A stretch of DNA of 64,000 bases, from the NCBI GenBank assembly GCA_030583765.1, contig CP129474.1:73709-137708 (forward strand), written 5' to 3'. Under the pieces are notes generated by a model. The model searched no databases. It was not told the DNA's origin and saw only the letters and a list, made by a program, of their open reading frames with translations. Shown here in pieces: positions 2,447 through 62,848 of this stretch. The DNA comes from Minisyncoccota bacterium. GTDB taxonomy: Bacteria > Patescibacteriota > Minisyncoccia > 2-02-FULL-40-12 > GWA2-44-9. Within the stretch, counting starts at the first letter, position 1; the number at the start of each line of letters is the position of its first letter. The translations under genes and the position numbers were made by a program.

Positions 2447-2455
2447 ACGATAAAA

Positions 2456-2812: not shown

Positions 2813-2813
2813 A

Positions 2814-3161: not shown

Positions 3162-3170
3162 GGGTAGTAA

Positions 3171-3917
3171 TTATGCCTCTTTCTCCTTCTTCTTGCTGCT
3201 CTTTGGCGCCGGAGCGTCTTGGGATGTTACATCAGGAACCTCAATCTTGGCAAGAGAACCGAAGTGGTCCGCAAGGATTTCCGAAGCGTTACGGAGTGCC
3301 GCTTCTGGCGTGATAGTGCCATCAGTTACGATCTCCATAGTCACTTTGTTGAAGTCAATGCGGTCGCCGACACGGATGTCGTCGATGCGGAAGTTCACCA
3401 GCTTTACTGGAGAAAAGATTGCATCCACAGCAATAACGCCGATAGGAAGCTTTTCCTTCTGGCGCTGCTCTGTAGGCACATATCCAACACCGCGCTCTAC
3501 GGTAAGTTCCATGCTTACAGAAGCCTTTTTGTCAGTGATGGTGAGGATCGGCTGCTCTGGGTTCACTACTTCCACATCGGCAGGAAGCTTCATGTCCCCT
3601 GCAGTCACAACGCCCTCTCCTTTCGCTTCAAGCACGAGTGTTACTGGGCCATCAGCAAAAGAGCGCAAGCGGATCTTCTTAACGTTGAGAATAATCTGAA
3701 TAGCGTCCTCGAGTACGTGATCAATCGCGGAAAACTCGTGATCGACGCCCTGGATTTTAATAGAAGTTACTGCGGCACCTTGCAACGATGAAAGCAAAAC
3801 GCGGCGCAGAGGATTTGCAACTGTGGCGCCATAACCAGGCATCAAAGGACCAATTTCAAAAACACCGCGAGTATTGCTGCGTTCGATCGTGGTGATTGTG
3901 TGGGGTGTTTGAATCAT
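3171..3917 (-). CDS. rpoA: DNA-directed RNA polymerase alpha subunit, N-terminal domain only (248 aa, no alpha-CTD)
   Basis: MIQTPHTITTIERSNTRGVFEIGPLMPGYGATVANPLRRVLLSSLQGAAVTSIKIQGVDHEFS... is an alpha-NTD. The protein ends in a short KKKEKEA tail. rplQ begins 10 nt after the stop, so no CTD is encoded here. Confidence 0.9.
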   Translation of the reverse strand: MIQTPHTITTIERSNTRGVFEIGPLMPGYGATVANPLRRVLLSSLQGAAVTSIKIQGVDHEFSAIDHVLEDAIQIILNVKKIRLRSFADGPVTLVLEAKGEGVVTAGDMKLPADVEVVNPEQPILTITDKKASVSMELTVERGVGYVPTEQRQKEKLPIGVIAVDAIFSPVKLVNFRIDDIRVGDRIDFNKVTMEIVTDGTITPEAALRNASEILADHFGSLAKIEVPDVTSQDAPAPKSSKKKEKEA

Positions 3918-4001: not shown

Positions 4002-4640
4002 TTATCGTGAATAATATTCAATAATCGCCTGCAAATCATCAACCTTCAAACCACTGGCATCCATCTTTGGGATCGTGTTTACCGTCGCAGTCATTGTCTG
4101 CTTATCAAGCGTCATCCATGCTGGCGCTTCATAATTTGCCAACCACTGTGGCATGAGACTACTCATGAACACATTCTTCTTACTGCCCTCGCGGATCCCC
4201 AAAACGTCGCCCTGCGAAACGCGGAACGAAGGGATGCTCACCTTGCGGCCATTCACGGTGACGTGGCCATGGTTTACAAGCTGACGCGCTTGATCGCGAG
4301 ATTGAGCAAGACCCATGCGGAACACCGCGTTATCTAAGCGAGTTTCAAGCGCGGCGATCATCGCATCGTACGGATCCATTTTCTCAGTAAGAGCGCGCTG
4401 AATGATGCTCTTAAACTGCTTCTCCATAAGGCGATAGGTCTTGCGGACCTTTTGCTTTGAACGGAGCTGAAGGCCGAATTCAGAGACCTTTCCAAAGTTA
4501 CCCGTCTTTCCATGTACACCGGGTGGATACGGGCGGCGCACTAATGCTGACTTCTGCGAGTGAGAACGCTCACCTTTTAAGGCAAGCTTTTCTCCTAAGC
4601 GACGCTCAATTTTCTCTCGTGGTCCAAGATATCGTGCCAT
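4002..4640 (-). CDS. rpsD: 30S ribosomal protein S4
   Basis: MARYLGPREKIERRLGEKLALKGERS...S4 domain...GLKVDDLQAIIEYYSR. Confidence 0.92.
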   Translation of the reverse strand: MARYLGPREKIERRLGEKLALKGERSHSQKSALVRRPYPPGVHGKTGNFGKVSEFGLQLRSKQKVRKTYRLMEKQFKSIIQRALTEKMDPYDAMIAALETRLDNAVFRMGLAQSRDQARQLVNHGHVTVNGRKVSIPSFRVSQGDVLGIREGSKKNVFMSSLMPQWLANYEAPAWMTLDKQTMTATVNTIPKMDASGLKVDDLQAIIEYYSR

Positions 4641-4652
4641 ATGTAATAAATA

Positions 4653-5090
4653 TTAGATGCGACGCGGCTTACGAGCGCGAACTCCGTTGTGTGCCACAGG
4701 AGTTCGATCTACGAGTGAAAGAATGTGCAACCCACTCGATGCGATGCCACGGATAGCTGACTCGCGAGCTGGGCCGACGCCGCGAACGACGATCTTGAGG
4801 TTCGCCACGCCATACTTCTTTGACTTCTCGAGACAGTCTTTTGCCACAAGGTTTGCGGCATACGGAGTTGATTTCTTCGTTCCCTTGAACCCAAGGAGGC
4901 CAGAGGATGACCACGAGAGCACGTTCCCCTTCATATCAGCGATTGAGATGATCGTGTTGTTGTATGAAATGGAGATATTCGCAATGCCATTCAACACCTG
5001 GCGCTTTGCGCCACGGCGCACCGGAGCAGCGCCACCTGCTGTTGCGGAAACCTCGGTATCAACTTTTGTGACAATTTTCTTCTTTCCCAT
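4653..5090 (-). CDS. rpsK: 30S ribosomal protein S11
   Basis: ...GIANISISYNNTIISIADMKGNVLSWSSSGLLGFKGTKKSTPYAA... is uS11. Confidence 0.92.
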   Translation of the reverse strand: MGKKKIVTKVDTEVSATAGGAAPVRRGAKRQVLNGIANISISYNNTIISIADMKGNVLSWSSSGLLGFKGTKKSTPYAANLVAKDCLEKSKKYGVANLKIVVRGVGPARESAIRGIASSGLHILSLVDRTPVAHNGVRARKPRRI

Positions 5091-5095
5091 ATGAA

Positions 5096-5482
5096 TTAGG
5101 TCTTTTGGTTTGCATCCTTACGGCCGGAACCCATGGTCTTACGAACATTACCACGCGTTGTGCGAGAATTGCGACGCGTGTTGCCCTTTAACGGCAAGCG
5201 GCGTGCAAGGCGACTCCCGTGGAGGGTGCCGATTTCTTTATAGCGTTTAATGTTCTGTCCGATTTCCTTACGAAGATCTCCTTCGAGCTTATGATCGCGC
5301 TCGAGAATCTTCTGAATGCGGTTGAGTTCATCTGCGCTCAGCTCTTGAGCACGCTTATCACCGTCTACCTTTGCCTCGGTGAGCACCTTCTTGCTTGTTG
5401 CCAAACCTACGCCATACAAATACTGCAGAGCGTAGAGCACTTTTTTATTATCTGGAATTTGAACACCAAAAATACGAGGCAT
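5096..5482 (-). CDS. rpsM: 30S ribosomal protein S13
   Basis: MPRIFGVQIPDNKKVLYALQYLYGVGLATSKKVL... Uses the internal Met at 5482; the upstream extension overlaps rpmJ. Confidence 0.9.
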   Translation of the reverse strand: MPRIFGVQIPDNKKVLYALQYLYGVGLATSKKVLTEAKVDGDKRAQELSADELNRIQKILERDHKLEGDLRKEIGQNIKRYKEIGTLHGSRLARRLPLKGNTRRNSRTTRGNVRKTMGSGRKDANQKT

Positions 5483-5914: not shown

Positions 5915-8026
5915 CTACTCCTCTGTGGGGCTTGGTTGAGGCGTCGCATAGATAAGTTCGACCGAAATATTGTTCACGTTATCAGGAGCTTTTGTTGCCC
6001 ATCGGGGTGACAGGGTTACGCGAGCTGAGCCAATATTTGTCTCCTGAGACCGAATGAAGCTTTCGAGCTGTTCCTTTGTTTTACCCCGCACACCATCGCG
6101 GATCATGTCGGTGGAAATAGCAGCGAATGCGGTCCCGCCAACCTGTACCGTGCCTCGCAACGTGCCCGCCTTTTCATCAAATACAGGGTTCGAAATGCTA
6201 TACGTAATATATTCTGGCAACACGGTGATAGGGTGCTTTTCTTCAAGAATCTTCTTGATAAAAGCGTGTATATCCTCCTCACGGAAGCCAACGGTTGTAA
6301 GCGTCTGTTTTGCACTCGCGGTGAATGTGTCTGCGGCCTCGTCTTGCTGTGCTGACGTTGTAATTTGTACTTCAGAGATCTTACTCGCTTCGTCCAAGAT
6401 GACATCTCTGGTGCGCGCATCCGTGAGAGCGTCTGCCATGAGTTGCTTCAGCTCGTTTTCAACTGCAGCGCGCGCCTTGACGATATCCGCTTCGGTGACA
6501 ACCTTTGCCCTACCCTGAACACCCCCGGCCATGGGCGCCGATGACGTTGCAGTAAATTTTGCATAGCGCTCAGCATCGTTTCGCTCTTTAAACGCAGAGA
6601 AAACAAATGACGAAGGGGCAATGTTGTATGTAGTACCTGGCTTATCAGCAATGACCTCTACCGTTGCTTTTCCAGGCTCTGATCCACGCATGCCCGGCAC
6701 CGTAATGGTCCGGAGCGTGCGGAATACTAAGCCCTCTTTTGTCTCAAGGCGTGTAGTGGCAATAAAGGTTTGGGGCGTAGCACTAAAGGCATTCAGGATA
6801 GTAACCGTGCCGCGAGCCTTTTGAGCCACGTCACGTTCTCCGCTCGCTGGGAATGTTTGCGATGCTGTTTTTTCAATCGTAATAAATTGCCCGGGCATAA
6901 CGCCTGTAGCGCTACTCATTTCCTTTATGTTGCGGTCAGCGAGCATTGGCAAGCTGTATTCAAGTTTTGATGGGGCGGGTGAAATGGCAAGGTGCGCAGA
7001 TTGAGGGGTAAACAAATAGATAGCCAGCGCGGAGATAGCCAGCACAGTAAGCCCAATGCCTACTTTGCCAATCGTAGAAATGCCGCCGCCGCGCGATGCA
7101 ACAACACGCTGTGGCGATGCGCCTTTTCGGAAAAAACGAGAAAACCAAGATCCCTGCTTTCCAGCAGAAACCGGCGGTCCCCAAATACCACCCTCTTTAC
7201 TTGGCTCACCCCATACTGTGGCGAGATCTTCTACGCGCGCTTCTCTTTGAAGTGGTACCGCGGAACGCTTACCCTGTGTGCCGCGTACAGGAACAGCGCG
7301 CCCACGACCTATCGCCGAAGGGACCGCACTGTCGAGTCGACGCCCCGATGCCGCAAGTGTTGCGTGAGGCACGTTGCGAGAAACGGCGACCTCTTCCGCT
7401 TCCAAATCTTCAAGCTCTTCAGAGGAGGGCTCGAGATCATCTTCGAGTACGTCTTTGTCTACTTCATCTGCATCTAAATCATCACCCTCTTCTGCTTTAG
7501 TGCCGTCGGCATCGGAATCGAGCTCTAGTTCTTCTTCGTGGAATCCTTCGTCTTCTTTGTGGCGACTTGTTCCCGGCTCCTGGTCATCATAAAACCCGTC
7601 TCCATCCACATCAACGCCACGGTATGGGGCGTGATCAGGGATTTCGCCATCGTCTTCATCTGGCTCACCCATGACTTCATCTGACGGGAGCACAACATCT
7701 CGCCCAGAAACAGCTAGGCGCGCCGCGGGCTTCTTCCGCGCACCACCTTTTGGCGTGTTCAACACTACTTCAAATGCATGATCGCGCGCTAGCGCAGCGA
7801 TATCTGGGTTCGGCGTCATGAAGGTGACGCGCTTTTCATTGGCGAGCGCTTCGCTTGCAAGCGTCGCAAAATCGTCCGTTTGAGAAAACGCCTTTGAGCG
7901 CTTGGGAAGAATAAAAACAACCTCCGAGGCGGGCGTCCCTTGCACAATGCTAAGAAGCTCGTCGAAGGTATCGTCCTTGAGGACGTGTATGATCTTGGTG
8001 CCTGCCATCGCATAAAAGTATAGCAC
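5915..8026 (-). CDS. Large hypothetical membrane protein, 703 aa: N-terminal globular domain, highly acidic D/E-rich low-complexity region, one TM helix, C-terminal beta-rich extracytoplasmic domains
   Basis: Long ORF with D/E runs (EPDEDDGEIPDH...DDQEPGTS...EEELELDSDADGTKAEEGDDLDADEVDKDVLEDDLEPSSEELEDLEAEE) and a TM segment GISTIGKVGIGLTVLAISALAIYLF. It occupies the place where secY-adk-map normally sit upstream of infA. Confidence 0.6.
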   Translation of the reverse strand: MLYFYAMAGTKIIHVLKDDTFDELLSIVQGTPASEVVFILPKRSKAFSQTDDFATLASEALANEKRVTFMTPNPDIAALARDHAFEVVLNTPKGGARKKPAARLAVSGRDVVLPSDEVMGEPDEDDGEIPDHAPYRGVDVDGDGFYDDQEPGTSRHKEDEGFHEEELELDSDADGTKAEEGDDLDADEVDKDVLEDDLEPSSEELEDLEAEEVAVSRNVPHATLAASGRRLDSAVPSAIGRGRAVPVRGTQGKRSAVPLQREARVEDLATVWGEPSKEGGIWGPPVSAGKQGSWFSRFFRKGASPQRVVASRGGGISTIGKVGIGLTVLAISALAIYLFTPQSAHLAISPAPSKLEYSLPMLADRNIKEMSSATGVMPGQFITIEKTASQTFPASGERDVAQKARGTVTILNAFSATPQTFIATTRLETKEGLVFRTLRTITVPGMRGSEPGKATVEVIADKPGTTYNIAPSSFVFSAFKERNDAERYAKFTATSSAPMAGGVQGRAKVVTEADIVKARAAVENELKQLMADALTDARTRDVILDEASKISEVQITTSAQQDEAADTFTASAKQTLTTVGFREEDIHAFIKKILEEKHPITVLPEYITYSISNPVFDEKAGTLRGTVQVGGTAFAAISTDMIRDGVRGKTKEQLESFIRSQETNIGSARVTLSPRWATKAPDNVNNISVELIYATPQPSPTEE

Positions 8027-8068
8027 AGGGCCTGCAAAATACGTGTGGAATAGTGGGTAAAAGGGGCC

Positions 8069-8109
8069 TTGCTTTTTCCCCTATTTTGTGCTATAATGAG
8101 GGCTGGAGG
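8069..8109 (+). promoter_or_regulatory. Sigma70-like promoter plus SD: TTGCTT, 17-nt spacer, TATAAT, then GGAGG
   Basis: ttgctt 8069-8074, tataat 8092-8097, ggagg 8105-8109. It precedes the ATG at 8118. Confidence 0.55.
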
Positions 8110-8117
8110 TTGAAGCC

Positions 8118-8240
8118 ATGCCCTTTCTCAACGCGGTGCTGTTTCTGGCCCTCGTGGCCGGAGGCGGGCTCGTTCTTTACGGGATCGTCTGGGCAAGCAA
8201 TCTGCCCAGCGAGCCCGCCCACACCCCCGACAACAAGTAG
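8118..8240 (+). CDS. Small GC-rich membrane peptide, 40 aa
   Basis: MPFLNAVLFLALVAGGGLVLYGIVWASNLPSEPAHTPDNK*, with its own promoter and SD. Confidence 0.45.
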   Translation: MPFLNAVLFLALVAGGGLVLYGIVWASNLPSEPAHTPDNK

Positions 8241-8257
8241 TCGGGGGTCATTCTATT

Positions 8258-11170
8258 TTATACGCCAAAGCGCATCGTACAGTAGGCGCACTCGCGGTCA
8301 TCGCACTTTCGTTCCCAGAATGAGAGCGCCAGCACTTCAGAAATAACTTTTTTAATTGCCGCTTCTGTTTCTTCAATGGGAAGCTCTTCAAGTGCAAAAG
8401 CTTCGCCGCGGTACTTTTCTCGCGGATCAGGCTGTATATATTCTATTTGGCCAGACACCATACGCAGCGCACCCCCTTGGTAGCCACGAAGCAGAATAGA
8501 GTAAAATGCGAGCTGGCGCACCTCGTCGCCAGTTGCATCTTTTGTTTTTCCCAGAAGGGCGTTACGGGTTTTAAAAGCTCCTGTCTTATAATCAATGACG
8601 TGTACCTCTGTTGGCGATAGTTTTTCAAGCTTATCGAGCGCACCATGAAGAACAATCCCCTCGTGCGCGGGCACATCTGAAATGCGCAGTTCATAGAGCG
8701 CATCACGGCGCCACAGTGAAGCACGCTCTGCGAGATATCCTTCTACCATTTCTAAACCTCGTTCCGCGAGATGCTGGCGATCTCGCGCCGTAAGAGGTTC
8801 GTGTTCTAGCGCCTTTGTAAACGCCGCGTGCGCAAGAGCGGGTATATGCTCCCCTGTTTGTGTGAACGCTTCGCCATAGGCGCGAAGTGCTGCGTGAATT
8901 GCGGTGCCAAGTTGTGCGTGCGCATGAGGCGCCTCTGGCATACGTACCAAGTTGCGGAAGAAAAACTTCCACGGACACGAGAGGTAGTTGTTCAACGCCG
9001 TTACCGAGAGCCCAGAGGAAAGGAAAAGGTCTCGTACATATGCATGCACGTCAGCTGGAGGCTGCGGTGCTGCAGCGTGCGCAGTATAGGTGGTGAGATA
9101 TTCCGCTTCTAAGGCATCCGTCGCAAATGTTTCGATATGAGCTGGATGTAATTCTGTGAGAAAACGTGAGGGGAGGCGCTCTCTGTCTTCAAGATCACGA
9201 ACCGCATAGGTAATGTATGCGACATCTTTCGCGCGAGTAAGCGCAACATAAAAGACATTCCGTTCATCTCCCTCAGGGTCTTGAGTGGTTGCATCGGTAA
9301 TCCGGTATACCTTCTCTGGAAGTGAGAGGAGTTCGCGACGCTGTTTGCCACCCCACGTTCCGTCAACGGCGTGCGCAATAATAACTACTTTAAATTCGAG
9401 ACCTTTTGCACGATGCGCAGTCATCACACGCACATATCCAGGCGGCAGCGCGTGCACGGGAAGCGCAAGTGCACCGTGATCATGGGCGCGCATGAGCGCA
9501 CGCCACACCGTTTCAAGTGATGCATCGGGTGATCGCGCAACTATACCGCGTATCGCGGTATAGAGCGTGCGAAGCGCGCGCATGTCGGTCATATCTTCAG
9601 GAGCGTCAAAGAGGCGCACGAGTGGAATGAGAAGATCAAGCGCTGTAAGCGGTCCATGGCGCCGCCCCTCTTCATGGGCTTTCGTGATATGCCGCCCCAA
9701 TTCAAGGAATGGTCGAGGGTGCACAATCCCCACATCACGCATCGCCGCTTCAGAACGGATGAGGTCCCATGCTTCTTTCCCAGAGCGCAGTGAGCGGATA
9801 AATCGGAATACATCGATCGCATCACATTTCCCCGCACCGGCCTGGAGTGCTTCCGAAAGAGCAATCGGGTCGCCGATCATGCACGTTGCGCGAAAGAGCA
9901 ACAGAAGAGGGCGGATGTGGGGATGACGAAACAGCGACTGGTTCGCCGTATGAGCCGCGTGAATGCCCACACGACCAAGCGCTCGGACGATGGGCTCTGC
10001 ATGCGCATTGTCGCGCACGAGCACCGCAATCTCTTCTGGGGCGACACCTTCAGTGATGTGCGTTTGCACAATGCGCGAGATACCAAAAAGTTCTACATCG
10101 GTGTGTGAAAATTGAGCCAGACGTACTGGCATGCCTGCAAACGCACGGTGCGCGCGAAGCGGCTCACTGTGTGGCGCAAGGCCATGTGCCGCATCAAGAA
10201 CCCGCTGCGTCGAGCGATAGTTAGTATCCAGCGTCACCACGCGCATTTTTTTAAACGCGCGCTGGAGAGCATGGAAGTTTTCATACGACGCGCCTTGAAA
10301 ACGATAGATCGCCTGCTTTGCGTCACCCACGACAAAAATATTAGGGCTCGAATCTTCGTGGATAATGGCATCGATCAGCCCGTGCTGCGCTGCATTCGTA
10401 TCCTGGTGCTCATCAATAAGAATGTGCTGGTAGCGCTCGCGCACATCTGCAGCGACTTCATCGTCGCGCATCATGGCATCGCGCGCACGAATGATCATGT
10501 CATCGAAATCATACCAACGACGCGCAGTGCATGCGTCCTTATATGCCCTATAGAGCTTTACAAGCTCTGCACGGCGCGCATACATGCGATCCGATACCTC
10601 CTTATCATCATCTCCTGGCACATCGTCACGAACGATCTGTTCAAAATCTTCGGGCGACACGCCTTCACGCTTTAACTCACTAATAGCTCGAACACAGTGC
10701 TGAATATAATATTCAGGGTCACCGCTAGGTCGCAGTGCTTCATATTCGCCTGTCTGTAGCAGCTCGGAGAGTAGGTCTACGCCTTCAACGTCGGTCATAG
10801 CGCGACCTCCAATAATATCTGGAAACGCATCAGCGTGTGTCTGGATGATATTGTTGGCAAATCCGTGAAACGTGGTGATGGTAACGCGATACGCATCGGG
10901 TCCAATGATATCAGAAAGGCGCTTACGCATAGCGAGCGCACCGGATTCAGTGAAGGTGAGCGCGAGAATTGCCTCTGGTGGATAGTCTGTTTTTGAAAGA
11001 ATCGTAGCGATGCGCAATGTGAGCATCTGCGTTTTTCCTGTACCTGGTCCCGCAATCACCATAACTGGACCATCGAGCGCAGCGACCGCCTCACGCTGTC
11101 GCTCATTCAGAGTGGCGAATGCTTTTTCATACTGAGTCTCTGTCTTTTTGCGAGAAACAGGAGTGGGCAT
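8258..11170 (-). CDS. UvrD/PcrA-like superfamily-1 helicase fused to a C-terminal PD-(D/E)XK Cas4/AddB-type nuclease domain with a Cys cluster
   Basis: N-terminus ...LNERQREAVAALDGPVMVIAGPGTGKTQMLTLRIATIL... carries Walker A. Helicase motifs run throughout. The C-terminus ends in ...WERKCDDRECAYCTMRFGV, a CxxxxCxxC Fe-S-type cluster typical of AddB/Cas4 nucleases. Confidence 0.8.
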   Translation of the reverse strand: MPTPVSRKKTETQYEKAFATLNERQREAVAALDGPVMVIAGPGTGKTQMLTLRIATILSKTDYPPEAILALTFTESGALAMRKRLSDIIGPDAYRVTITTFHGFANNIIQTHADAFPDIIGGRAMTDVEGVDLLSELLQTGEYEALRPSGDPEYYIQHCVRAISELKREGVSPEDFEQIVRDDVPGDDDKEVSDRMYARRAELVKLYRAYKDACTARRWYDFDDMIIRARDAMMRDDEVAADVRERYQHILIDEHQDTNAAQHGLIDAIIHEDSSPNIFVVGDAKQAIYRFQGASYENFHALQRAFKKMRVVTLDTNYRSTQRVLDAAHGLAPHSEPLRAHRAFAGMPVRLAQFSHTDVELFGISRIVQTHITEGVAPEEIAVLVRDNAHAEPIVRALGRVGIHAAHTANQSLFRHPHIRPLLLLFRATCMIGDPIALSEALQAGAGKCDAIDVFRFIRSLRSGKEAWDLIRSEAAMRDVGIVHPRPFLELGRHITKAHEEGRRHGPLTALDLLIPLVRLFDAPEDMTDMRALRTLYTAIRGIVARSPDASLETVWRALMRAHDHGALALPVHALPPGYVRVMTAHRAKGLEFKVVIIAHAVDGTWGGKQRRELLSLPEKVYRITDATTQDPEGDERNVFYVALTRAKDVAYITYAVRDLEDRERLPSRFLTELHPAHIETFATDALEAEYLTTYTAHAAAPQPPADVHAYVRDLFLSSGLSVTALNNYLSCPWKFFFRNLVRMPEAPHAHAQLGTAIHAALRAYGEAFTQTGEHIPALAHAAFTKALEHEPLTARDRQHLAERGLEMVEGYLAERASLWRRDALYELRISDVPAHEGIVLHGALDKLEKLSPTEVHVIDYKTGAFKTRNALLGKTKDATGDEVRQLAFYSILLRGYQGGALRMVSGQIEYIQPDPREKYRGEAFALEELPIEETEAAIKKVISEVLALSFWERKCDDRECAYCTMRFGV

Positions 11171-50036: not shown

Positions 50037-50459
50037 CTACTTTCCGCTCGAACCAAAGCCATTCGCACCACGTTTAGTTGCGGAAAGGGAGGCAACTTTT
50101 TTAAGAGAAACATGCTCCACTTTTTGTATAAGCATCTGCGCTACTTTATGTCCGGCTTCGAGCGTTACGGCTTTCGTGCCAAGGTTGATGATCCCCACCT
50201 GTACTTCACCCCGATAGCCAGAATCAATCACGCCGCCCATCACCTTGAGCCCATGCTTTGTTGCGAGTCCGCTTTTGTCCCAAATAAGCCCCACTGTACC
50301 CCGTGGAAGCGCCATTGCGATCCCCGTAGGCACCACCACAAGCTGTTTTGGTTTTATCACCACGCGCGTAACCGTATAGAGATCCATGCCCGCATCACCG
50401 CTGTTAGCATAGCTGGGCATCATGGCGTCTGAGCGCAAAAGCTGAATATTGAGTTTCAT
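50037..50459 (-). CDS. dut: dUTP diphosphatase
   Basis: ...SGDAGMDLYT...GVIDSGYRGEVQVGIINLG... are dUTPase motifs. Confidence 0.88.
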   Translation of the reverse strand: MKLNIQLLRSDAMMPSYANSGDAGMDLYTVTRVVIKPKQLVVVPTGIAMALPRGTVGLIWDKSGLATKHGLKVMGGVIDSGYRGEVQVGIINLGTKAVTLEAGHKVAQMLIQKVEHVSLKKVASLSATKRGANGFGSSGK

Positions 50460-50470
50460 AATGTGTGAGG

Positions 50471-51505
50471 TTACTTCTTTTGGTTTGGCATCTCACTAAA
50501 ATCGTTTGCTATCCTACGAAAAGCACCTTTTCCTAAAATACCCTCCACAATGCGTGCTAATGGGAGATAGCGTCCAGAAAAATGTGCTTTCGCAAATTCG
50601 GCAAAAATATCAGACCGCTGCATATATACGCCCTGTGATTTCTCTACAAGCTCGTCAAGGAGCGCATTAAACTTTTTGCGCTCGAAATATCTTTCTTTCA
50701 TTTCAACGGCTCCGTGTTGTTTCATTCCATCAATAAGACCCGCGGCGTATGCAGGCCATTTATCTTCGGACGGATATGCTGCTTTAATTGTTTCAAGCGT
50801 ACGGATCGGATCCTCTACATATTCCGTTTCCTCTGCATACTCCTGCATCTGCTGCTGCGTCCAACCTAGACGCTGATGGTATGCATTCGCCAAATCATGC
50901 AATTCTTTCATAGCTTTATATTCTTCGCCAAAAAAGCCACGTTCCCCCAACATTGCCACCAGCTGTGATGCGCATTCTGTAACAATAGCCTCTTCAAGCT
51001 GAGCAAAGTACTCTTTTTCATCACCAAGCTCTACGGAAGAATCTTTTTGATCAATCATTTGAATGCCACTACGATAGAGAGCCCCCTCACCATCGGGTCG
51101 AATATAAAAAGATTTAAAGCCTTTTGCGTGAAAGAGCTCGTGTGCAAGGCTTCCACAGAAAGGAATTTTTGATGATCGCTTCTCTACGCCAACATGGAGA
51201 GAAAGGGGTTTATGGATACCATCACGAAGCTTTCCCCGTGTAAGTTCAAATACAGCGCCCGGCTTAAGAATGTGTATATTTTCTATCGGCAAATGCTTCG
51301 CCGCGCCTCCATATAGTACAGCGATCTCATCTACTAGTCCTTGAACCTCCCTTATAACTGCGAGATCTTCCGGCGTCTTTTCCAGCTCAAATGGCGCGAA
51401 GGCTTCGGGGGGATTTGAAAAAAGATTTTGGAGAAATTCAGAAACCTCTTCTTTATCTTTTTCGCTCCCGCCGACGATGTGCTCAAAGTGAGTTTTTTCT
51501 CCCAT
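50471..51505 (-). CDS. Hypothetical protein with an HExxH motif (SLAHELFHAKG), possible zinc metallopeptidase-like
   Basis: The motif was read from the ORF. No further family assignment. Confidence 0.4.
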   Translation of the reverse strand: MGEKTHFEHIVGGSEKDKEEVSEFLQNLFSNPPEAFAPFELEKTPEDLAVIREVQGLVDEIAVLYGGAAKHLPIENIHILKPGAVFELTRGKLRDGIHKPLSLHVGVEKRSSKIPFCGSLAHELFHAKGFKSFYIRPDGEGALYRSGIQMIDQKDSSVELGDEKEYFAQLEEAIVTECASQLVAMLGERGFFGEEYKAMKELHDLANAYHQRLGWTQQQMQEYAEETEYVEDPIRTLETIKAAYPSEDKWPAYAAGLIDGMKQHGAVEMKERYFERKKFNALLDELVEKSQGVYMQRSDIFAEFAKAHFSGRYLPLARIVEGILGKGAFRRIANDFSEMPNQKK

Positions 51506-55919: not shown

Positions 55920-56329
55920 CATGTTCGTTTTAATGCCGCGATGATCCACAGCGCAGTTACCGATGTCAGCGCCGTTACCACAACACCCCAGAGGATATCA
56001 ACCACGGTGATCACGAGTGGCCATTTGGCAATGGTTGCATGATTAGTGAGATCGTAGGCTCCGTAGGCAGCAAGCCCCAAGAGGGCACCCCGCCACAACA
56101 CTTCACCCCACGAACCACTCGCCACAGCAGGCGCTACCACAAGGCCGTAGACAGCAAGGGCATAGAGCGGGTAGAAAAGCACAACGGGAGCGAGGTTGAT
56201 TGTTTTCTGGAACAAGAAGCCCATGCGCTCTGCATAGAATCCTTTTGCAATCACCATCAACCAGAGCGCATCGAACACTGCGAGTGGCACGAGCGTAGCA
56301 AGATAGGCAAGGAATGAGTTCATGCGCAC
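55913..56329 (-). CDS. DUF2177-family membrane protein
   Basis: Four TM helices. ...[17 protein letters not shown]... is typical of DUF2177. Confidence 0.55.
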
Positions 56330-56441
56330 AGTATACTACATGCCGTGCCTCGCACAGAAGCACGGGCAAAAATTCCTTCCCCCCACACCCCCCCCTTCCG
56401 CCGTGTTCTTGCGGGGACGGACGGAAATTTTGGCGGCGGCA

Positions 56442-58304
56442 TTATGAATTGCTAAAGCCCGTCGCTATCTTATCAAATATTACTTCAAAATTTTTGATAG
56501 TATCCTGCGACAAAGTAATTTTGGATTTATCAGTTTTGACTTTCTCAAAAAACTTTTTGGAAAGGAGTACCTTATCTATTTTTTGATCTTTCAAAAATTT
56601 TGAATTAGCGACGGCTTTATCCTTACTCTTTCCATCATCAAGAACAAAATTGTTGAAATCGTCATGGGTGAACAAATCCTCTATCGAATTTCCATCTTGG
56701 TCAGAAACTGGAATTATTTTATTCTCTGGAACCGCTAATTTTTCCGCAAGCTCTTTCGCGATTCTCTTACCTTCGGCATCATTATCTAAAACCGCTAAAA
56801 ACTCCAAATCCCAACCCAAAAGCAAAGATGCTATCTGTGGCGCCTTCGGCGCACCAACACACGGGATAAGATTTGCATTAGTTGTTTTTCCCTTCGTCAT
56901 AAATTCTTTGAGGGCTTGCAGAAAATAGTAATCCGAAATTCCCTCAAGTAAAACATTGTGCTTTCCGGCGATTGAAAAATCTTGCGTCAAATCAAGGCCG
57001 ATTGCTGTAATAATCGGAGTCAGTGTTTCGTTATCAGCGTTTTTATGGATTTTATTCTCAACTTTTGTTCCGTTGGCATCGTCCTTAATAACGAGACGTA
57101 CTCTATCTAAACGTTGAGCGTCAATGAGATACGGGGAATGTGTGCTAAAAATAACTTGCGACTCCTTTGCAATTTCTTCAAAAACTTTCAAAACATCTTT
57201 TTGCGCTTTCGCGTGGAGATAAAGTCCGGGCTCGTCAATTAAGATTATATTCGTTTCGTCTTTTTCCGCATTGAGTCGCAGGTAGAATGATAAAAACCAT
57301 TGAAAGCCCTTACTTCTCTGCTCTGGTTTGAAAAGCATCGTTTTTCCGGCCTCTCTAACTCCAAGACGCAACTTGTCTCCGTCGGCCTCTGCGACTAAAT
57401 CAAGTTGATTTTGGCCCCAATATCCCATAAAGTCGCCGGTGATACTGGCAGAATGTTTACTTAATAGATTTCGCCGTAATTGAGTATTAGTGGTTTTTAC
57501 TACGTCGTCTAAGCTTAAACCGGCGACTTTCGCAAAATCACTCACGGGTTTATTGTTTTTTGCTTCAGCAAGCGGAAGTTCAAAAGGCAAAATATCGAGA
57601 AAGTCACTGAAGAATATAAAATTTGGAATATATGCTTGGATTTCTTCAAGAAAAACATCTGAAGCGGTCGGGCTTTGTAATGTGCCATTTTCGGCAGTAA
57701 TTGTCGCAATAATTGAATCAGCCTGACTTTTCTTTTCGGTTTCAGTAATTGCGGCTGCCTTTGCTGTTGCTTGAGCGACAAATTGCGTCAACGCATTTTT
57801 TATTTCTTCAATAGAACCGGATATTTTAGGATCGACAAGATCGGTCAATCCGTCTATCTTTTTTAATTTGTCTAACGAAGTTTTTATCTTTGTAATAATT
57901 TGAGCATTCTTGTCGCTTACCGATTTATCAAGCAATTTTTCGAGTGCTTCATCGGATAAATCATAACTTCCGTCAAAATACTTAAAAATCGCTACACCAT
58001 TTTTTGCGATGTGCTCGCGTGTGGCTTTATCAATAGTTATACTTTTTTCTTGTGCAATAGCATCAAGGGTTGCCTTATCGGCATCAAAGACCAATTCAAT
58101 CATTGGTTCCCCACTTTGATCAAGTGGTAACGCCTCATCGGATATTTTCTCAATGTTGGTATCAAAATCTCGCAACGCTTCCAAAATTCCGCTTTTCCCG
58201 GACTCATTCTTCCCAGCAAGTGTTGTTACGTCAGAAGCAAGCCAGCAATAGCCGGAATCTTTAATTGATTTGTATTCTGTTACGCGGAATTTTATAAGTT
58301 TCAT
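56442..58304 (-). CDS. Class-1 OLD-family nuclease: N-terminal ABC-type ATPase fused to a C-terminal Toprim domain
   Basis: Walker A GKNESGKSGILEAL, signature-like QRSKGFQWF, Walker B IILIDEPGLYLH, H-loop IFSTHSP. Toprim motifs VLLEGISDYYFL (Glu) and AVLDNDAEGK (DxD). Confidence 0.75.
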   Translation of the reverse strand: MKLIKFRVTEYKSIKDSGYCWLASDVTTLAGKNESGKSGILEALRDFDTNIEKISDEALPLDQSGEPMIELVFDADKATLDAIAQEKSITIDKATREHIAKNGVAIFKYFDGSYDLSDEALEKLLDKSVSDKNAQIITKIKTSLDKLKKIDGLTDLVDPKISGSIEEIKNALTQFVAQATAKAAAITETEKKSQADSIIATITAENGTLQSPTASDVFLEEIQAYIPNFIFFSDFLDILPFELPLAEAKNNKPVSDFAKVAGLSLDDVVKTTNTQLRRNLLSKHSASITGDFMGYWGQNQLDLVAEADGDKLRLGVREAGKTMLFKPEQRSKGFQWFLSFYLRLNAEKDETNIILIDEPGLYLHAKAQKDVLKVFEEIAKESQVIFSTHSPYLIDAQRLDRVRLVIKDDANGTKVENKIHKNADNETLTPIITAIGLDLTQDFSIAGKHNVLLEGISDYYFLQALKEFMTKGKTTNANLIPCVGAPKAPQIASLLLGWDLEFLAVLDNDAEGKRIAKELAEKLAVPENKIIPVSDQDGNSIEDLFTHDDFNNFVLDDGKSKDKAVANSKFLKDQKIDKVLLSKKFFEKVKTDKSKITLSQDTIKNFEVIFDKIATGFSNS

Positions 58305-58307
58305 AAT

Positions 58308-58952
58308 TTAACTCGCAATTTCAAAAATCTTTTTCACTAACCCCGTTCGCGCGTAAAACGCGCGAGTAATGGGACGGCGTTCTCCTGTCCGCGGGTTCAC
58401 GCCACCGATTCCTTTTGTTCGCGCCTGTATCCACTTTCCGTCTTTACCAGTAAGCGCGGTAAACCCGTGTTTGATAAGTTTTGCGCGGATAAAATCATAA
58501 TCGGCCTTTATTTCCTGTATCAATTCGTCATCCTCGGCAAAATCCAAACTCGCTACCCGCAAAAGTTTTGATCCTTTGGCGTTTAAGCCGTCCCATTGCA
58601 CCGCGCAAAACACAATGGTTTTGAGTTTTGCCCAAACATGGCTTTCAAAAAACGAATGGGCTTTCAATTCTTCAGAATTTATCATTGTAATCGCCATTGT
58701 TTCTTTGGGCACGAGAATTTCTTTCATCTCGTGAAAAGCAACAGATTTTAATTCGTAAGTAAGCCCATTTGGTGCTTTTGATACGTTTGTTTGAAGTCCT
58801 GCCAACCGCTCCAAAACAAGGCCTTTCCAGCCCTTGTTTTGCTTGCCATTCAGATAAGGATTGATTCCAAATTGAGGCGCAAGCTCGGCAAGGTCTTTAC
58901 CGATATACTTTTTCAGATTTTTTATGGCGGTTGCGCGGGTTACGATTTTCAT
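58308..58952 (-). CDS. MutH/Sau3AI-family type II restriction endonuclease, probably GATC-specific
   Basis: ...NKGWKGLVLERLAGLQTNVSKAPNGLTYELKSV... parallels MutH (KGWVGQLLE...ELGVELKTIP). Confidence 0.65.
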   Translation of the reverse strand: MKIVTRATAIKNLKKYIGKDLAELAPQFGINPYLNGKQNKGWKGLVLERLAGLQTNVSKAPNGLTYELKSVAFHEMKEILVPKETMAITMINSEELKAHSFFESHVWAKLKTIVFCAVQWDGLNAKGSKLLRVASLDFAEDDELIQEIKADYDFIRAKLIKHGFTALTGKDGKWIQARTKGIGGVNPRTGERRPITRAFYARTGLVKKIFEIAS

Positions 58953-59761
58953 ACTTTTGATTTCTTATTTTTCATATTTCGATCCAAATCCTCAAATCGC
59001 TTTATTGATACATCCAAAAACTTTTTGTCCAAATCAATTCCGATAAATTTTCTGCCGAACAAATGCGCGGCAATTCCCGTTGTTGAACTTCCGGTAAACG
59101 GATCAAGAACAATGTCACCTTTGTTCGTGCTTGAAAGGACAACTCGTTTTAGCAAATCTTCCGGTTTTTGCGTTGGATGTTTGCCGTACTTTTTTTCAAT
59201 CGCTTTTGGTGTTCCCATAGACCAAACCGAACGCATTTGAAGTCCGGGCTTTTTCAACGCGTCCTCCGGCCAAGTGCCATTTTTCATCAAGTCGTAATTG
59301 AAAATATGTTTTGCTTTTTTATCTTTTCTTGCCCAAATAAGCGTTTCATGGCTTGCGGTGAAAAAACGGCAACTCAAATTCGGTGATGCGTTCGGTTTGA
59401 ACCACGCAATATCATTGAGAACATGAAAACCCGCAACTTGGAGAGCAAAGCCGCATTGGTAAATGGAGTGATAAGTCCCACTAATCCAAATCGTGCCGTG
59501 CGGCTTCAGCACTCGTTTGACGGCTTGCACCCATTCAAGATGAAATTCAAAATCTTTTTTTAGTCCGTTGCTTTTGTCCCATTCTCCCTTGTTTACGCTC
59601 ACACGCCGTCCGGCGTGAACGGTGAACCCGCCGTTTGAGAGAAGATAAGGCGGATCAGCAAAAACCATATCAATTGAATTTTCGGGGATGTCAGCGAGAA
59701 TATCCAGACAATTTGCTTGGTATAAAACGAAGTCGTCTTTTTGATAATAGGGTTTTTGCAT
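58949..59761 (-). CDS. Beta-class DNA methyltransferase with a DPPY motif (N6-adenine or N4-cytosine; DpnA/M.MboI-like)
   Basis: Motif IV VFADPPY near the N-terminus and motif I ...VLDPFTGSSTTGIAA... near the C-terminus give the beta-class order. Confidence 0.8.
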   Translation of the reverse strand: MQKPYYQKDDFVLYQANCLDILADIPENSIDMVFADPPYLLSNGGFTVHAGRRVSVNKGEWDKSNGLKKDFEFHLEWVQAVKRVLKPHGTIWISGTYHSIYQCGFALQVAGFHVLNDIAWFKPNASPNLSCRFFTASHETLIWARKDKKAKHIFNYDLMKNGTWPEDALKKPGLQMRSVWSMGTPKAIEKKYGKHPTQKPEDLLKRVVLSSTNKGDIVLDPFTGSSTTGIAAHLFGRKFIGIDLDKKFLDVSIKRFEDLDRNMKNKKSKV

Positions 59762-59763
59762 AA

Positions 59764-60423
59764 CTATTTTCCTCTCTCTATATCAGCTTGCATCTGCAGC
59801 CATGCGTCACCAGCCCCCTCCATGGCCTCAGACTCCCCTTCGTCCATCCTTCGTCGTCGATCGTCTAAAATTTCATCTTCATACTCAAAATATAACGTAC
59901 CTTGCGGTCTCCGCTTATATCCCAATAAATCACGAGCCATATTTGATAGAAAATCAATCTTATCTCCGATTTTTATTTTGTCGCCCTCTACTACTTCAGC
60001 AACTATGTTGGAATCTCTTGTAAAAGTGAGTTTCGATCCAATAGGTATCCCGTATTTCCCAAAATGAAATTTTGAGCGCCTTGTCTTTACTTCGTCGACC
60101 TCCTTCTCTTGCTCTTGGGTTAAGCCACTGTCAATACTAACTTCTCTAATTTCTGCTCGCTTTAATGCAAGTGCCGCATATTCTGGATTCATTTTAAAAA
60201 ACTCTCGGTTAACTCGCGCACGACGGTCTGCGAAAATAGAGTGAAGCCATTTTTCCTCTCTTTCAGCGTCTTCAACGGTTGCCGCGTAATAGACCTCAAA
60301 AGGAAGCGGCACACCTGTCCGATCTAGCTGCCTTAGTCTTTCCTTAACATCGCCATGAGTAAACCCTATTTTTATATACTCGGGCATTGCTTCGTTTTTT
60401 AAAATATAAACGATTTGGCTCAT
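59764..60423 (-). CDS. T5orf172 / GIY-YIG-like domain protein
   Basis: IVYILKNEAMPEYIKIGFTHGDVKERLRQLDRTGVPLPFEVYY... is the T5orf172 (Mug113-like) pattern. It is the first gene of the AT-rich operon. Confidence 0.55.
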   Translation of the reverse strand: MSQIVYILKNEAMPEYIKIGFTHGDVKERLRQLDRTGVPLPFEVYYAATVEDAEREEKWLHSIFADRRARVNREFFKMNPEYAALALKRAEIREVSIDSGLTQEQEKEVDEVKTRRSKFHFGKYGIPIGSKLTFTRDSNIVAEVVEGDKIKIGDKIDFLSNMARDLLGYKRRPQGTLYFEYEDEILDDRRRRMDEGESEAMEGAGDAWLQMQADIERGK

Positions 60424-60498
60424 AGATAACTAGACACATAGCTTTTCTGCCATTATCCTCTCAAAAACACACAAGAAAGGCAATCGGGGATTGGCCGC

Positions 60499-62052
60499 CT
60501 ATTCATCATACACCTCTTGGATGTTGGACTCCCAAAGGCGCAGCTGGCCGCCAACAGAGCGGACGGTCCAGGAACCAACGAAAGAGCGGTAGACAATGTC
60601 GCCGTCAATAAGGTCTGTTGATTCTAGCTCTACGAATACGCGGGAATGGTTCTTCGGATCAGCGGTTATGTGGTAAACGGCGGTTTGGAGCTGTGTTTCA
60701 AATCCCACAACCCAATCTGCATAGGTAACCCTGCCGATAAAATGCGAAGAGAGTAAGGCGAATGCCGCTTCGTAGTTGCGCGCACTGATGTAGTGGTAAT
60801 AGGCACGGACCGTATCAATGGGCGATGCGTTGGGGTTAATGTCTTTGTCGGGATTATCCCACGGCACACTCGTGCCAATGCGCAATGATTCATCCACCCA
60901 CTCCCGCGCAATATCAGTACTGATGCCGATGCTCAAACTTTCACCACCTGCGGCGTTAATGCCCACCACCCTGCCGCAAAAAGTAATCATCGGGCCGCCA
61001 CTCATGCCCTCGACAAGGCCGCCATCTGTTTGCAGGTAGTGCCGCTCGCCTGCCTTATTGCCACGAAATGCACTAATCGTAGCACGGTTTACGGTAACCT
61101 CTCCGTTCAGCGAACCGCCGTAAGGGTAGCCGAGAATAAACAGCTGTTGGCCCAATTGCGCATTCTGCCAGGCTTCCCACGGGAGGGGGCGCATGTTCCG
61201 TTCCACGGAAATGAGCGCTAAATCCAATCCTGGATGGCCATCCACAATGATGCCTGCTTCAAATGATCCGTCTGCATATACTATTTTGGGGCTTGGTTCG
61301 CCATCAATGACGTGATAGTTGGTGAGGATGAAATGCTCTTTTACAGCAAAGCCACTTCCCTCTCCAAAGGCTCCGATGATGCGTACAACGGAAGGGCCTG
61401 CTTCCGCAATGGTGTCTTGCGCACTGCATTGTAATGCCTCTCTCCCGCCAAGAGCGCGCTCAATGTCTGCAAGTCTCTCAAGTGTTGTGTACGCGAGCCA
61501 TGCGCCTGCCACTAGCATCAATAGTACGATAGCTGACACGATGCGGAGCAAGATGATTGGGCGCGGAAGCCACTTTCGTTGCATGAGACGCTCTAAAAAT
61601 GCATCACCACCATAGTCAGCAAATAATTTAAAGCCAAACGGCGTGAGAAAGCCAAACATAAACCAAGCCGTGGAGAAAATGAGTGCCGTAGTAATATTTA
61701 AAAGCACATAGCGCCATTGGGGCGTTTCGGGATAGTCAATGAATGAAAGTGCTAGCAGGCCCGCAAAGCCACAGAGCATGCCTAGGAGAAGGAGCGGTCT
61801 CTGTTTTCGGCTCAACGACTCGGACCATTCATATTCCTCTCCAACGCGGTATCCCTGTATCACAAGGCCGGCCGTACATATAAGAAAAGGGACGCCAACG
61901 GACAAGAAGTCCTCTAATCCCGTACGCTCATTATCTGAGAAAATAATGATGACGACGAGTAAAAGAGTATAAAAGACCGCCATGCGGATGTCCCATGACG
62001 TTGCGAGCCAGCGAGAGCGCGTTTCACGCAATTTCTGTATAAATGGATGCAT
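60499..62052 (-). CDS. Polytopic membrane-anchored trypsin-like (S1/HtrA-type) serine protease with a C-terminal extension
   Basis: Five or six N-terminal TM helices. ...GFAVKEHFILTNYHV... is the His region. ...GLDLALISV... is the Asp region. ...GMSGGPMI... is the Ser region. Confidence 0.7.
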   Translation of the reverse strand: MHPFIQKLRETRSRWLATSWDIRMAVFYTLLLVVIIIFSDNERTGLEDFLSVGVPFLICTAGLVIQGYRVGEEYEWSESLSRKQRPLLLLGMLCGFAGLLALSFIDYPETPQWRYVLLNITTALIFSTAWFMFGFLTPFGFKLFADYGGDAFLERLMQRKWLPRPIILLRIVSAIVLLMLVAGAWLAYTTLERLADIERALGGREALQCSAQDTIAEAGPSVVRIIGAFGEGSGFAVKEHFILTNYHVIDGEPSPKIVYADGSFEAGIIVDGHPGLDLALISVERNMRPLPWEAWQNAQLGQQLFILGYPYGGSLNGEVTVNRATISAFRGNKAGERHYLQTDGGLVEGMSGGPMITFCGRVVGINAAGGESLSIGISTDIAREWVDESLRIGTSVPWDNPDKDINPNASPIDTVRAYYHYISARNYEAAFALLSSHFIGRVTYADWVVGFETQLQTAVYHITADPKNHSRVFVELESTDLIDGDIVYRSFVGSWTVRSVGGQLRLWESNIQEVYDE

Positions 62053-62103
62053 ACCCTCTGTTATGCATACGTTATACGCGCAAACGCCGAAAGAAGAAAG
62101 GGG

Positions 62104-62523
62104 CTATTTCTTTGTTATTTTAATCTTCGCTTTTTTGTTCAGCTCAGCTAGGCGACCTAATGAAAAAGATTTCTGCTTCTCTCTAAACAACAGCGCAACT
62201 TCGCCATTATATTTTTCTTTAAAATCTCCGTCTGGCTGTAGTTGTAATACTAAAAGCAAAAGATCTTTTGGAGATTTTTTCGTTAATTGGATGGAACCAT
62301 GTTGTGTTGTTTTTATCTGAACATCGTACTTACCCCATTCTGCGTCTATATATGGATTACCGGGGCGATGGAGCGTGAGACCATATTGCCATTGTGCCCA
62401 CACCTCCCCCGAACTCCCGATCGCAAACCCATCAAGAGTAAAGGGCCTGCCGGTATCTCGGGTAAGCTCGGAGCATATATCTAGTAATTGTTTGAGTAAC
62501 TTTTTATATTGAAGGGCTTTCAT
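62104..62523 (-). CDS. Hypothetical protein (about 140 aa from the internal Met) in an AT-rich segment
   Basis: ORF 62104..62616. An internal start, MKALQYKK, avoids a long overlap. Composition is AT-rich relative to the neighbours. Confidence 0.4.
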   Translation of the reverse strand: MKALQYKKLLKQLLDICSELTRDTGRPFTLDGFAIGSSGEVWAQWQYGLTLHRPGNPYIDAEWGKYDVQIKTTQHGSIQLTKKSPKDLLLLVLQLQPDGDFKEKYNGEVALLFREKQKSFSLGRLAELNKKAKIKITKK

Positions 62524-62848
62524 GTGTGATCGCTTCAATGCGTTCGTCACAACGGGCGACGATGTCGTCTTTCTGGGCTTCGTAGGCTTGTTGGGCGATG
62601 GATTCGTATTCCTCAAGCGCTTCGTTCACGAAGCCTGCAGAGAAGAGGATCTCGGCACGTTGCAGATCCGCCTCCCACCGTGCTTCGTCGGAAAGGGCTT
62701 CACGCGCAGTCCACCACTCTTGAATGCACTGTTTGGTGCGCTCCCCTGCAAGGCCTTCGGTGCGGAGGGCTTCTCCTAAACGTTCTGCAAGGGTAAGTTC
62801 TTTTTCTTTGCGTTCTGGTGCGGGCGTTGATGGGTTTTCGAATGACAT
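62504..62848 (-). CDS. Hypothetical acidic helical protein
   Basis: ORF with no recognisable family. Confidence 0.4.
   Translation of the reverse strand: MSFENPSTPAPERKEKELTLAERLGEALRTEGLAGERTKQCIQEWWTAREALSDEARWEADLQRAEILFSAGFVNEALEEYESIAQQAYEAQKDDIVARCDERIEAITHESPSI

Follow-up and report, generated by a model that had tools for sequence, protein, structure and literature searches.

Do four tightly packed genes in a metagenome-assembled genome of Candidatus Paceibacterota (candidate phyla radiation, CPR) encode one new defence system, or are they separable modules that have been brought together on a restriction operon? The genes lie on the minus strand of a 64,000-nt stretch of DNA, which is referred to below as the window. 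They encode a T5orf172-family protein, a DNA methyltransferase, a MutH/Sau3AI-fold endonuclease and an OLD-family ABC ATPase-Toprim nuclease. The block at 56377-60424 is read here, with a probability of roughly 0.6, as a horizontally acquired modular defence cassette, in which a type II restriction-modification (R-M) core carries two promiscuous accessory modules and the OLD protein would act as a co-expressed second-line effector. A modular cassette is preferred to a fixed new four-gene system because each of the two add-ons is found on many unrelated restriction systems. The comparative sequence data indicate that the T5orf172 and OLD proteins are not subunits of this particular system; both are met again on restriction operons that are unrelated in type and in specificity. 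The features of the block and its edges, from 5' to 3' on the coding strand, are as follows.

60424..60498, minus strand: intergenic region of 75 nt located 5' of the T5orf172 gene, one edge of the island and the sole non-coding space for an operon promoter
59764..60423, minus strand: T5orf172/GIY-YIG-superfamily protein, PDC-S57 member and operon leader, 219 aa (Pfam, PADLOC)
58949..59761, minus strand: beta-class N6-adenine/N4-cytosine DNA methyltransferase, modification half of the type II R-M pair, 270 aa (Pfam, PADLOC, motifs)
58308..58952, minus strand: MutH/Sau3AI-fold endonuclease, presumed restriction half, 214 aa; overlaps the end of the methyltransferase gene by 4 nt
56442..58304, minus strand: OLD-family ABC ATPase-Toprim nuclease of class-1-like sequence, 620 aa; starts 3 nt past the endonuclease stop
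56377..56441, minus strand: conserved non-coding 3' tail of the OLD cassette, 65 nt, the other edge of the island; ends in a C-rich tract (G-rich on the coding strand)

A preliminary description of this DNA had placed four one-strand genes at these positions with gaps or overlaps of at most 4 nt, and the listing of open reading frames (ORFs) agrees: the four co-directional ORFs are packed in an operon-like manner, with a 2-nt gap between the T5orf172 and methyltransferase genes, a 4-nt overlap between the methyltransferase and endonuclease genes, and a 3-nt gap between the endonuclease and OLD genes. The same description had taken an AT-rich composition as an argument for horizontal acquisition. 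The GC content of 56380-60424 is 0.411 versus 0.511 in the remaining window; the island is the lowest-GC 4-kb stretch of the window, approximately 3.8 SD under the mean, and 1-kb windows with a GC content below 0.44 occur nowhere in the window but in the island. This composition supports the horizontal acquisition of the island. The four domain assignments proposed earlier also hold in profile searches against Pfam, PADLOC and NCBIfam.

The second and third genes constitute the restriction core. The methyltransferase matches Pfam N6_N4_Mtase (1.7e-57, 195 bits) and PADLOC MTase_II (7.4e-98), and its DPPY motif (residues 36-39) precedes FTGSS (222-226), which is the beta-class motif order; the closest solved structures are CcrM (6PBD, 4.1e-57), followed by DpnA (5HEK, 4.2e-29). 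The endonuclease scores above the cut-off of the Pfam MutH model (2.7e-8, 34 bits against 23), under that of the NCBIfam Sau3AI model (8.8e-14), and matches the solved MutH structure 1AZO at 2.9e-5. Its AlphaFold2 (AF2) model, which is of moderate confidence (pLDDT 62.6), gave Foldseek matches to MutH and Sau3AI with TM values of 0.61-0.68, and 80 sequences show no variation at Glu48 or in the motif P61-N62...E67-L-K69. More than 2000 homologs exist, all of those listed being exactly 214 aa in length, and the few with taxon names belong to CPR groups. Sau3AI is partnered by an m5C methyltransferase. In comparison with Sau3AI, DpnII/MboI and MutH, the window endonuclease shares the MutH/Sau3AI fold and has a beta-class partner of DpnA size, but it is a single 214-aa domain, whereas Sau3AI has two domains and approximately 470 aa.

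The pairing of the two genes was examined in 80 metagenome loci centred on endonucleases with 71-92% identity to that of the window. The methyltransferase gene adjoins the endonuclease gene in 78 of these loci, and the remaining two end at a contig edge. The earlier proposal of an R-M pair is therefore upheld: the two genes are a genuine conserved type II R-M pair, which was recovered in very many environmental contigs. Several of these loci carry additional genes between the two halves of the pair. A full GmrSD type IV enzyme is inserted at L108 (1997-3745) and a DUF6996/DUF6997 protein at L116 (2474-4120), and further ORFs, either 114-142 or 186-189 aa long and unmatched in Pfam at E <0.001, recur in the same position at L109, L115, L137, L146, L147, L153, L157, L158, L160, L162 and L166. 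From their position, these inserted genes are candidate defence genes embedded in a type II system.

The last gene of the operon encodes a protein with Pfam matches to AAA_15 (1.4e-20) and AAA_21 (1.2e-15) and a match to OLD-like_TOPRIM that falls below the cut-off (1.3e-3, 19.6 bits versus 23.2). Its best PADLOC model is Old (5.2e-27), ahead of AriA (4.3e-21, residues 1-394) and AriAB (5.4e-17), and among solved structures the protein is nearest to the Thermus scotoductus class 1 OLD (TsOLD, 6P74; 1.4e-15), with the match spanning Walker B through Toprim. Across 20 homologs, down to 50% identity, the ATPase motifs are invariant (Walker A G31-K-N-E-S-G-K37, EQRSKGFQ 328-335, Walker B D357-E358 and H389), as are the Toprim residues E454, D507-x-D509 and E542-D543. 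The complete set of ATPase and Toprim motifs described earlier is thus retained, and the Toprim catalytic residues are not missing on alignment. Judged by its sequence, the protein belongs to the OLD family, with an N-terminal ABC ATPase and, at the C terminus, a Toprim domain bearing the Glu and DxD motifs. A phage origin of the gene was considered and dropped, as only four weak partial matches were found in 50,697 phage records.

Four classes of OLD context have been described, namely isolated single genes (class 1), Gabija (class 2), retron-linked genes (class 3) and PARIS (class 4) (PMC10568477, PMC6755086, PMC12392090, PMC13261556). None of these four papers describes an R-M-linked context, and according to the OLD reviews little is known of what class 1 OLD proteins do in cellular genomes. 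The window OLD gene is not adjoined by a gene for a helicase, a reverse transcriptase or a separate Toprim protein. Downstream of it, a 112-nt spacer is followed by a DUF2177 gene, and GajA profiles score far below Old, in disagreement with class 2. There is no reverse transcriptase ORF in 56200-60700, and the NCBIfam retron Eco8 effector model gives 40.9 bits against a cut-off of 250, in disagreement with class 3. As for class 4, both AriA and AriAB score under Old, and Pfam gives no DUF4435 match. The gene resembles class 1 in having no fixed partner, since the partners of its relatives vary; it departs from class 1 in not being isolated away from defence genes, as it starts 3 nt past the endonuclease gene and at least 23 of 83 relatives abut R-M genes.

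These relatives provide the first part of the evidence for modularity. In a scan of one genome per species, 432 stretches with OLD relatives were found, 80 of which were fetched (34-66% identity); the neighbourhood set comprises 83 loci, whose flanking genes were predicted and scanned against Pfam. The OLD clade, which is mostly uncultivated, contains more than 1600 protein clusters, and among the fetched loci are ones from Patescibacteria (CPR), DPANN archaea, Nitrospirota, Planctomycetota, Omnitrophota, Proteobacteria and Bacillota. In at least 23 of the 83 loci the OLD gene is co-directional with R-M genes; the gap ranges from -4 to +82 nt and stays within 36 nt save at the two type IIG loci. 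The linked systems are type I at nine loci (in the form hsdM-OLD-hsdS-hsdR), type III-like at one (Mod-OLD-RhuM-Res), type IIG at two, type IV at one (OLD after Mrr) and type II at ten. The type II loci alone represent at least seven endonuclease families (NgoPII, HaeII with Vsr, BsaWI, HNH, GmrSD_N-HNH, MvaI/BcnI and MutH-like), combined with m5C, EcoRI-like or N6_N4 methyltransferases. One further locus (L043), with a controller-type HTH gene and an HNH endonuclease gene and no visible methyltransferase gene, was left out of the 23. On a neighbour-joining tree, the R-M-linked loci fall in three separate clades, and other clades are stand-alone. In a Candidatus Zapsychrus contig (L034), two OLD/AAA_15-type genes occur in tandem (159-1787 and 1940-3799).

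Closer relatives differ in their partners. The P0005 OLD, which is 94% identical to that of the window, comes after genes for an HTH controller (C) protein, an N6_N4 methyltransferase of 250 aa and an MvaI/BcnI endonuclease, with a 4-nt overlap at the endonuclease stop, and the P0007 OLD (79% identical) has no recognisable R-M neighbour. The four-gene set itself recurs only once, in the same order, at L081, where the OLD is also 94% identical; neither a T5orf172 gene nor a MutH-like gene was found within 6 kb of OLD at any of the 80 species-representative loci. The converse exchange is seen from the side of the R-M pair. Among 50 loci that carry the same R-M pair and have enough downstream sequence, an OLD gene follows in five, each time starting 5-7 nt past the endonuclease stop. 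These five OLDs (593-629 aa), whose best PADLOC model is likewise Old, belong to four lineages and are 23-38% identical to that of the window, and one has 80% identity to the OLD on the NgoPII system of L052. L001 and L052 have this NgoPII R-M system in common (methyltransferases 89% identical) and OLDs that are just 37% identical. Modules are therefore shuffled combinatorially: one OLD can be joined to R-M systems of different kinds, and one R-M system can carry this or that OLD, or none.

The T5orf172 gene at the 5' end shows the same behaviour with a different set of hosts. Its product matches Pfam T5orf172 (9.5e-16) and MUG113 (6.5e-14) and, over nearly its full length, the PADLOC family PDC-S57 (PDLC05041, 4.9e-60; residues 2-195 on profile positions 5-208 of 212). 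T5orf172 is a member of the GIY-YIG superfamily (PMC8096241), and the GIY-YIG-type positions Y6, Y/F16, R29, E74 and N79 are conserved in 26 homologs. The C-terminal half (approximately residues 100-195) has no match in Pfam, the Protein Data Bank (PDB) sequence search of the protein was empty, and its AF2 model was unusable (pLDDT 47). The protein has homologs with 76-91% identity, the named ones coming from several CPR groups and Caldatribacteriota. In comparison with phage homing-endonuclease relatives and the PLE CapR lineage, it is without a Bro-N or KilA-N DNA-binding domain and heads a type II operon.

T5orf172 homologs adjoin R-M genes in all eight distinct contexts examined, the window and L081 operons included. 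In seven of these they lead the operon, and the junctions are short overlaps or gaps of a few nucleotides. Outside the window they head type I, type II and type IIG/ISP operons: HTH-T5orf172-EcoRI-like methyltransferase-GmrSD_N/HNH; T5orf172-hsdM-hsdS-AAA_13-hsdR; T5orf172-hsdM-RhuM-hsdS-hsdR, with an adjoining serine recombinase; T5orf172 before a ResIII+Eco57I fusion; and T5orf172 before an HSDR_N_2 helicase and an MmeI-like methyltransferase/specificity protein. In the eighth context its neighbours are an HNH gene on the opposite strand and a multi-domain methyltransferase. The T5orf172-led type I operons also carry other embedded genes: at L171 and L172, an AAA_13 ABC ATPase (7468-8594 and 4178-5304, respectively) occupies the PrrC/RloC position between hsdS and hsdR, and at L174 and L175, RhuM stands between hsdM and hsdS, and the serine recombinase is located immediately upstream, on the other strand. 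Embedding in BREX, DISARM and type I R-M systems was the basis for defining the PDC families, which their authors present as candidates (bioRxiv 10.1101/2024.01.29.577857). The window protein matches PDC-S57 near full length, and the contexts at L171 and L174 fit the PDC definition; the name PDC-S57 itself was not found in the literature searched.

The C-rich tract that had been reported at the left boundary near 56377 lies at 56379-56399, exactly where homology to related cassettes stops (56377 and 56380). Between the window and L082, which is arranged as controller, methyltransferase, endonuclease and OLD genes (C-M-R-OLD), DNA homology extends from 58306, 2 nt before the OLD ATG, to 56377, 65 nt past the stop, and the same limits apply to the P0005 OLD. 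In the comparison with L082-L085 and L081, homology from the OLD start reaches 56377 and 56380, and with L081 it begins at 60424, one base before the T5orf172 ATG. The island (60424-56380) matches L081 5815-9861 at 88% nucleotide identity, and the flanking host genes match at 94-98%. The L081 flanks differ from those of the window in an extra 215-aa gene and in being without the 517-aa and 170-aa genes. The insertion site looks like a variable hot spot, with an island that diverged faster than its flanks or was exchanged. Two milder low-GC stretches of the window (0.43-0.47), at 62000-62500 and 50250-51500, may be further acquired genes; the former covers a 170-aa ORF at 62104-62616, near the island.

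The 65-nt tail after the OLD stop is kept in all close OLD cassettes and is present once in the window. At L082, a perfect inverted copy of the tail (393-452; the other copy at 4160-4219) lies upstream of the entire C-M-R-OLD module, which is thereby bracketed by inverted repeats of about 60-80 nt. From this arrangement, the tail may be a mobility or recombination element; no inverted copy flanking the island was found in the window. Two other explanations of the tail were dropped: a stable RNA hairpin, as the predicted fold of the window copy is not significant (z 0.24; the L082 copy gave z -2.47), and a genome-wide repeat or MITE, as it occurs a single time in the window. An Rfam scan of 56000-60800 gave nothing but one sub-threshold chance match.

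Taken with published systems, these observations suggest how the cassette might function. The four genes would be transcribed together, as their spacing suggests, and co-transcription would mean that restriction takes the accessory genes with it, both in expression and in transfer. The first line would be the R-M pair, by which unmethylated incoming DNA is cut. By analogy with P2 Old, PARIS and PrrC, the OLD protein could then serve as a second-line effector that works autonomously: its ABC ATPase would detect a phage product, or a state signalling failed or inhibited defence, and its Toprim domain would then cleave DNA or tRNA, aborting the infection. The contribution of the T5orf172 protein is the least certain; it may be a backup effector of the nuclease type, or else a leader, homing-like or regulatory, that moves from one R-M operon to another.

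Each of the three analogies is partial. The class 1 OLDs (P2 Old, TsOLD 6P74, Vibrio cholerae OLD and Escherichia coli YbjD/OldB) share with the window OLD all the catalytic motifs and the lack of a helicase, retron or split Toprim partner. They are isolated by definition, whereas the window OLD is the last gene of an R-M operon and is approximately 90 aa longer than TsOLD (620 versus 528 aa). PARIS (AriA/AriB) likewise combines an OLD-type ABC ATPase with a Toprim nuclease; unlike the split AriA/AriB, the window OLD is fused, has no DUF4435-type Toprim match and scores higher to Old. The classical precedent for an R-M system with a backup effector is EcoprrI-PrrC, and PrrC/RloC resemble the window OLD as ABC-ATPase effectors in an R-M operon. 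PrrC is kept silent by the EcoprrI type I R-M system and is released by a phage anti-restriction peptide. The resemblance to PrrC is one of genes, and PrrC has an anticodon nuclease domain where the window OLD has a Toprim domain. The trigger of PARIS is the anti-restriction protein Ocr (PMC11464382), and triggering by anti-restriction proteins gives a rationale for linking an OLD to R-M. P2 Old cleaves tRNA upon RecBCD inhibition (PMC12445682), and Vibrio cholerae OLD nicks DNA (PMC12392090).

The preliminary description had called the arrangement one that matched no described system. That part stands in so far as the OLD reviews keep class 1 as isolated genes (PMC10568477, PMC6755086), and it does not stand in so far as the embedding of ABC ATPase-Toprim genes, and of the PDC-S57 family, in R-M-like systems has been published (bioRxiv 10.1101/2024.01.29.577857; PMC12839542). 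Payne et al. reported that Hma, BREX, DISARM and type I R-M systems often contain other defence genes in the same orientation, most commonly of the family of ABC ATPases with Toprim partners. They validated the fused ATPase-Toprim HEC-04 and released 145 candidate PDC families (PDC-S57 series) (bioRxiv 10.1101/2024.01.29.577857). A 2026 survey described OLD-ABC/TOPRIM modules in BREX as backup suicidal effectors (PMC12839542). HEC-01/HEC-04 and the BREX modules are like the window OLD in being ATPase-Toprim effectors placed co-directionally in or against a methylation-based system with a proposed second-line role, and the type I-embedded relatives of the window OLD (L065-L080) resemble these published cases. 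The published surveys concern multi-gene systems (Hma, BREX, DISARM, type I), whereas the host in the window is a two-gene type II pair and the add-on is terminal, not internal. In addition, the best PADLOC model of the window OLD is Old, with HEC-01A weaker and partial and HEC-04 absent among the 25 matches listed. The present findings are thus an extension of the published embedding principle, and what they add lies in the minimal type II pairs, the breadth over R-M types, the module shuffling and the T5orf172 gene at the 5' end.

Several observations weigh against the cassette as read here. The scan of 56200-60700 for sigma-70 promoters and intrinsic terminators returned counts equal to those of shuffled sequences, and the case for co-transcription is one of spacing only. 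In the alignment with the MutH triad (D70, E77, K79), D70 falls on the invariant N62, beside a 2-residue gap, and E67-L-K69 is kept; the pLDDT of the AF2 model is below 50 at residues 56-68, the region of N62. The activity of the endonuclease is uncertain because an Asn replaces the catalytic Asp70, and the enzyme may, from its sequence, have a variant active site or be a nickase. MutH and Sau3AI act at GATC. Kinship to these two enzymes is the one line of support for a recognition site, which by this analogy would probably be GATC-like; the methyltransferase is nearer to CcrM (GANTC) than to DpnA (GATC) in the solved-structure search, and there is no signal of site avoidance in the window, taken as host DNA (observed/expected 1.00 for GATC and 1.01 for GANTC). 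The chemistry of the OLD effector has to be left wide because class 1 substrates differ, being tRNA for P2 Old and DNA for Vibrio cholerae OLD. Finally, 45 of the 50 loci with the same R-M pair are without an OLD, and stand-alone OLD homologs are numerous, with plasmid copies in Lactococcus lactis and Bacillus thuringiensis among them, so the OLD-R-M linkage may reflect co-mobility rather than function.

A more specific version of the modular reading is tentative and would be the case in perhaps a minority of outcomes. The OLD clade and, separately, the PDC-S57 T5orf172 proteins could be dedicated, interchangeable plug-ins for all R-M types, with the OLDs forming a fifth, R-M-linked context class. 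Their activity would be tied to restriction, firing when it is inhibited or finishing restricted DNA, and the T5orf172 protein would mobilise or control the cassettes.

Direct cooperation of the OLD with restriction, the main rival reading, is unlikely. Here the R-M enzymes would break foreign DNA, and the OLD, as a 5'-3' exonuclease or nickase, would degrade the fragments in a RecBCD/AddAB-like role, blocking the repair or recombination of phage DNA. OLD genes are linked to every class of DNA-cutting R-M, whatever its specificity or fold, and such indifference to R-M type fits a partner that acts on a common product, DNA ends. TsOLD and P2 Old are indeed non-specific 5'-3' exonucleases on linear dsDNA in vitro (PMC10568477), and the spacing of 2-12 nt or stop/start overlap suggests translational coupling. 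However, the 45 OLD-less loci show that restriction does not need the OLD, many members of the family are stand-alone, and P2 Old targets tRNA in vivo (PMC12445682).

An equally improbable account is that the T5orf172, R-M and OLD genes are independent selfish or defence genes gathered at a variable hot spot, with no regulatory or functional link among them. It fails to predict same-strand junctions of 2-12 nt or with stop/start overlap over at least seven endonuclease families and four R-M types, the insertion of OLD between hsdM and hsdS, or the T5orf172 gene leading the operon in seven of eight R-M contexts, even though it accords with the variable site (the differing flanking genes and extra 215-aa gene of L081), with an island at 88% nucleotide identity between flanks at 94-98%, and with the commonness of stand-alone OLD homologs. 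The preliminary description had itself allowed that the genes might be merely adjacent, on which the synteny data divide: the four-gene set is not conserved, and each accessory gene is separately and recurrently joined to unrelated R-M systems.

An obligate system needing all four proteins, which would give the distinct composite or novel module suggested earlier, is very improbable and is rejected on synteny, because tight same-strand packing and the same gene order at L081 are outweighed by the near-identity of that relative (OLD 94%, flanks 94-98% nt), which makes its gene set a matter of shared ancestry and not of independent conservation, by the occurrence of T5orf172 in 0/80 loci carrying the same R-M pair and of OLD in 5/50, always of other lineages, and by 0/80 OLD-homolog loci with a T5orf172 or MutH-like gene.

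Far from the island, ARAGORN predicts a 93-nt tRNA at 5155-5247 on the plus strand whose anticodon, TTA, would decode UAA stop codons; this may be a suppressor tRNA, a tRNA with an intron or a false prediction.

With the modular cassette as the favoured reading, the locus and its relatives show that, in a large clade that is mostly uncultivated, class-1-like OLD genes have been joined repeatedly and independently into restriction operons. The pattern has three parts: the same OLD is found on different R-M systems, the same R-M system is found with different OLDs or none, and the T5orf172 gene behaves alike at the 5' end. As comparative sequence evidence, this pattern is unusually clean and indicates that selection favours the pairing of restriction with a second-line effector. 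It extends the idea of guilt by embedding to minimal type II systems, as an extension of a published principle and not as a new kind of system, and these loci offer compact four-gene and three-gene constructs in which the cooperation of R-M with an abortive effector could be tested.

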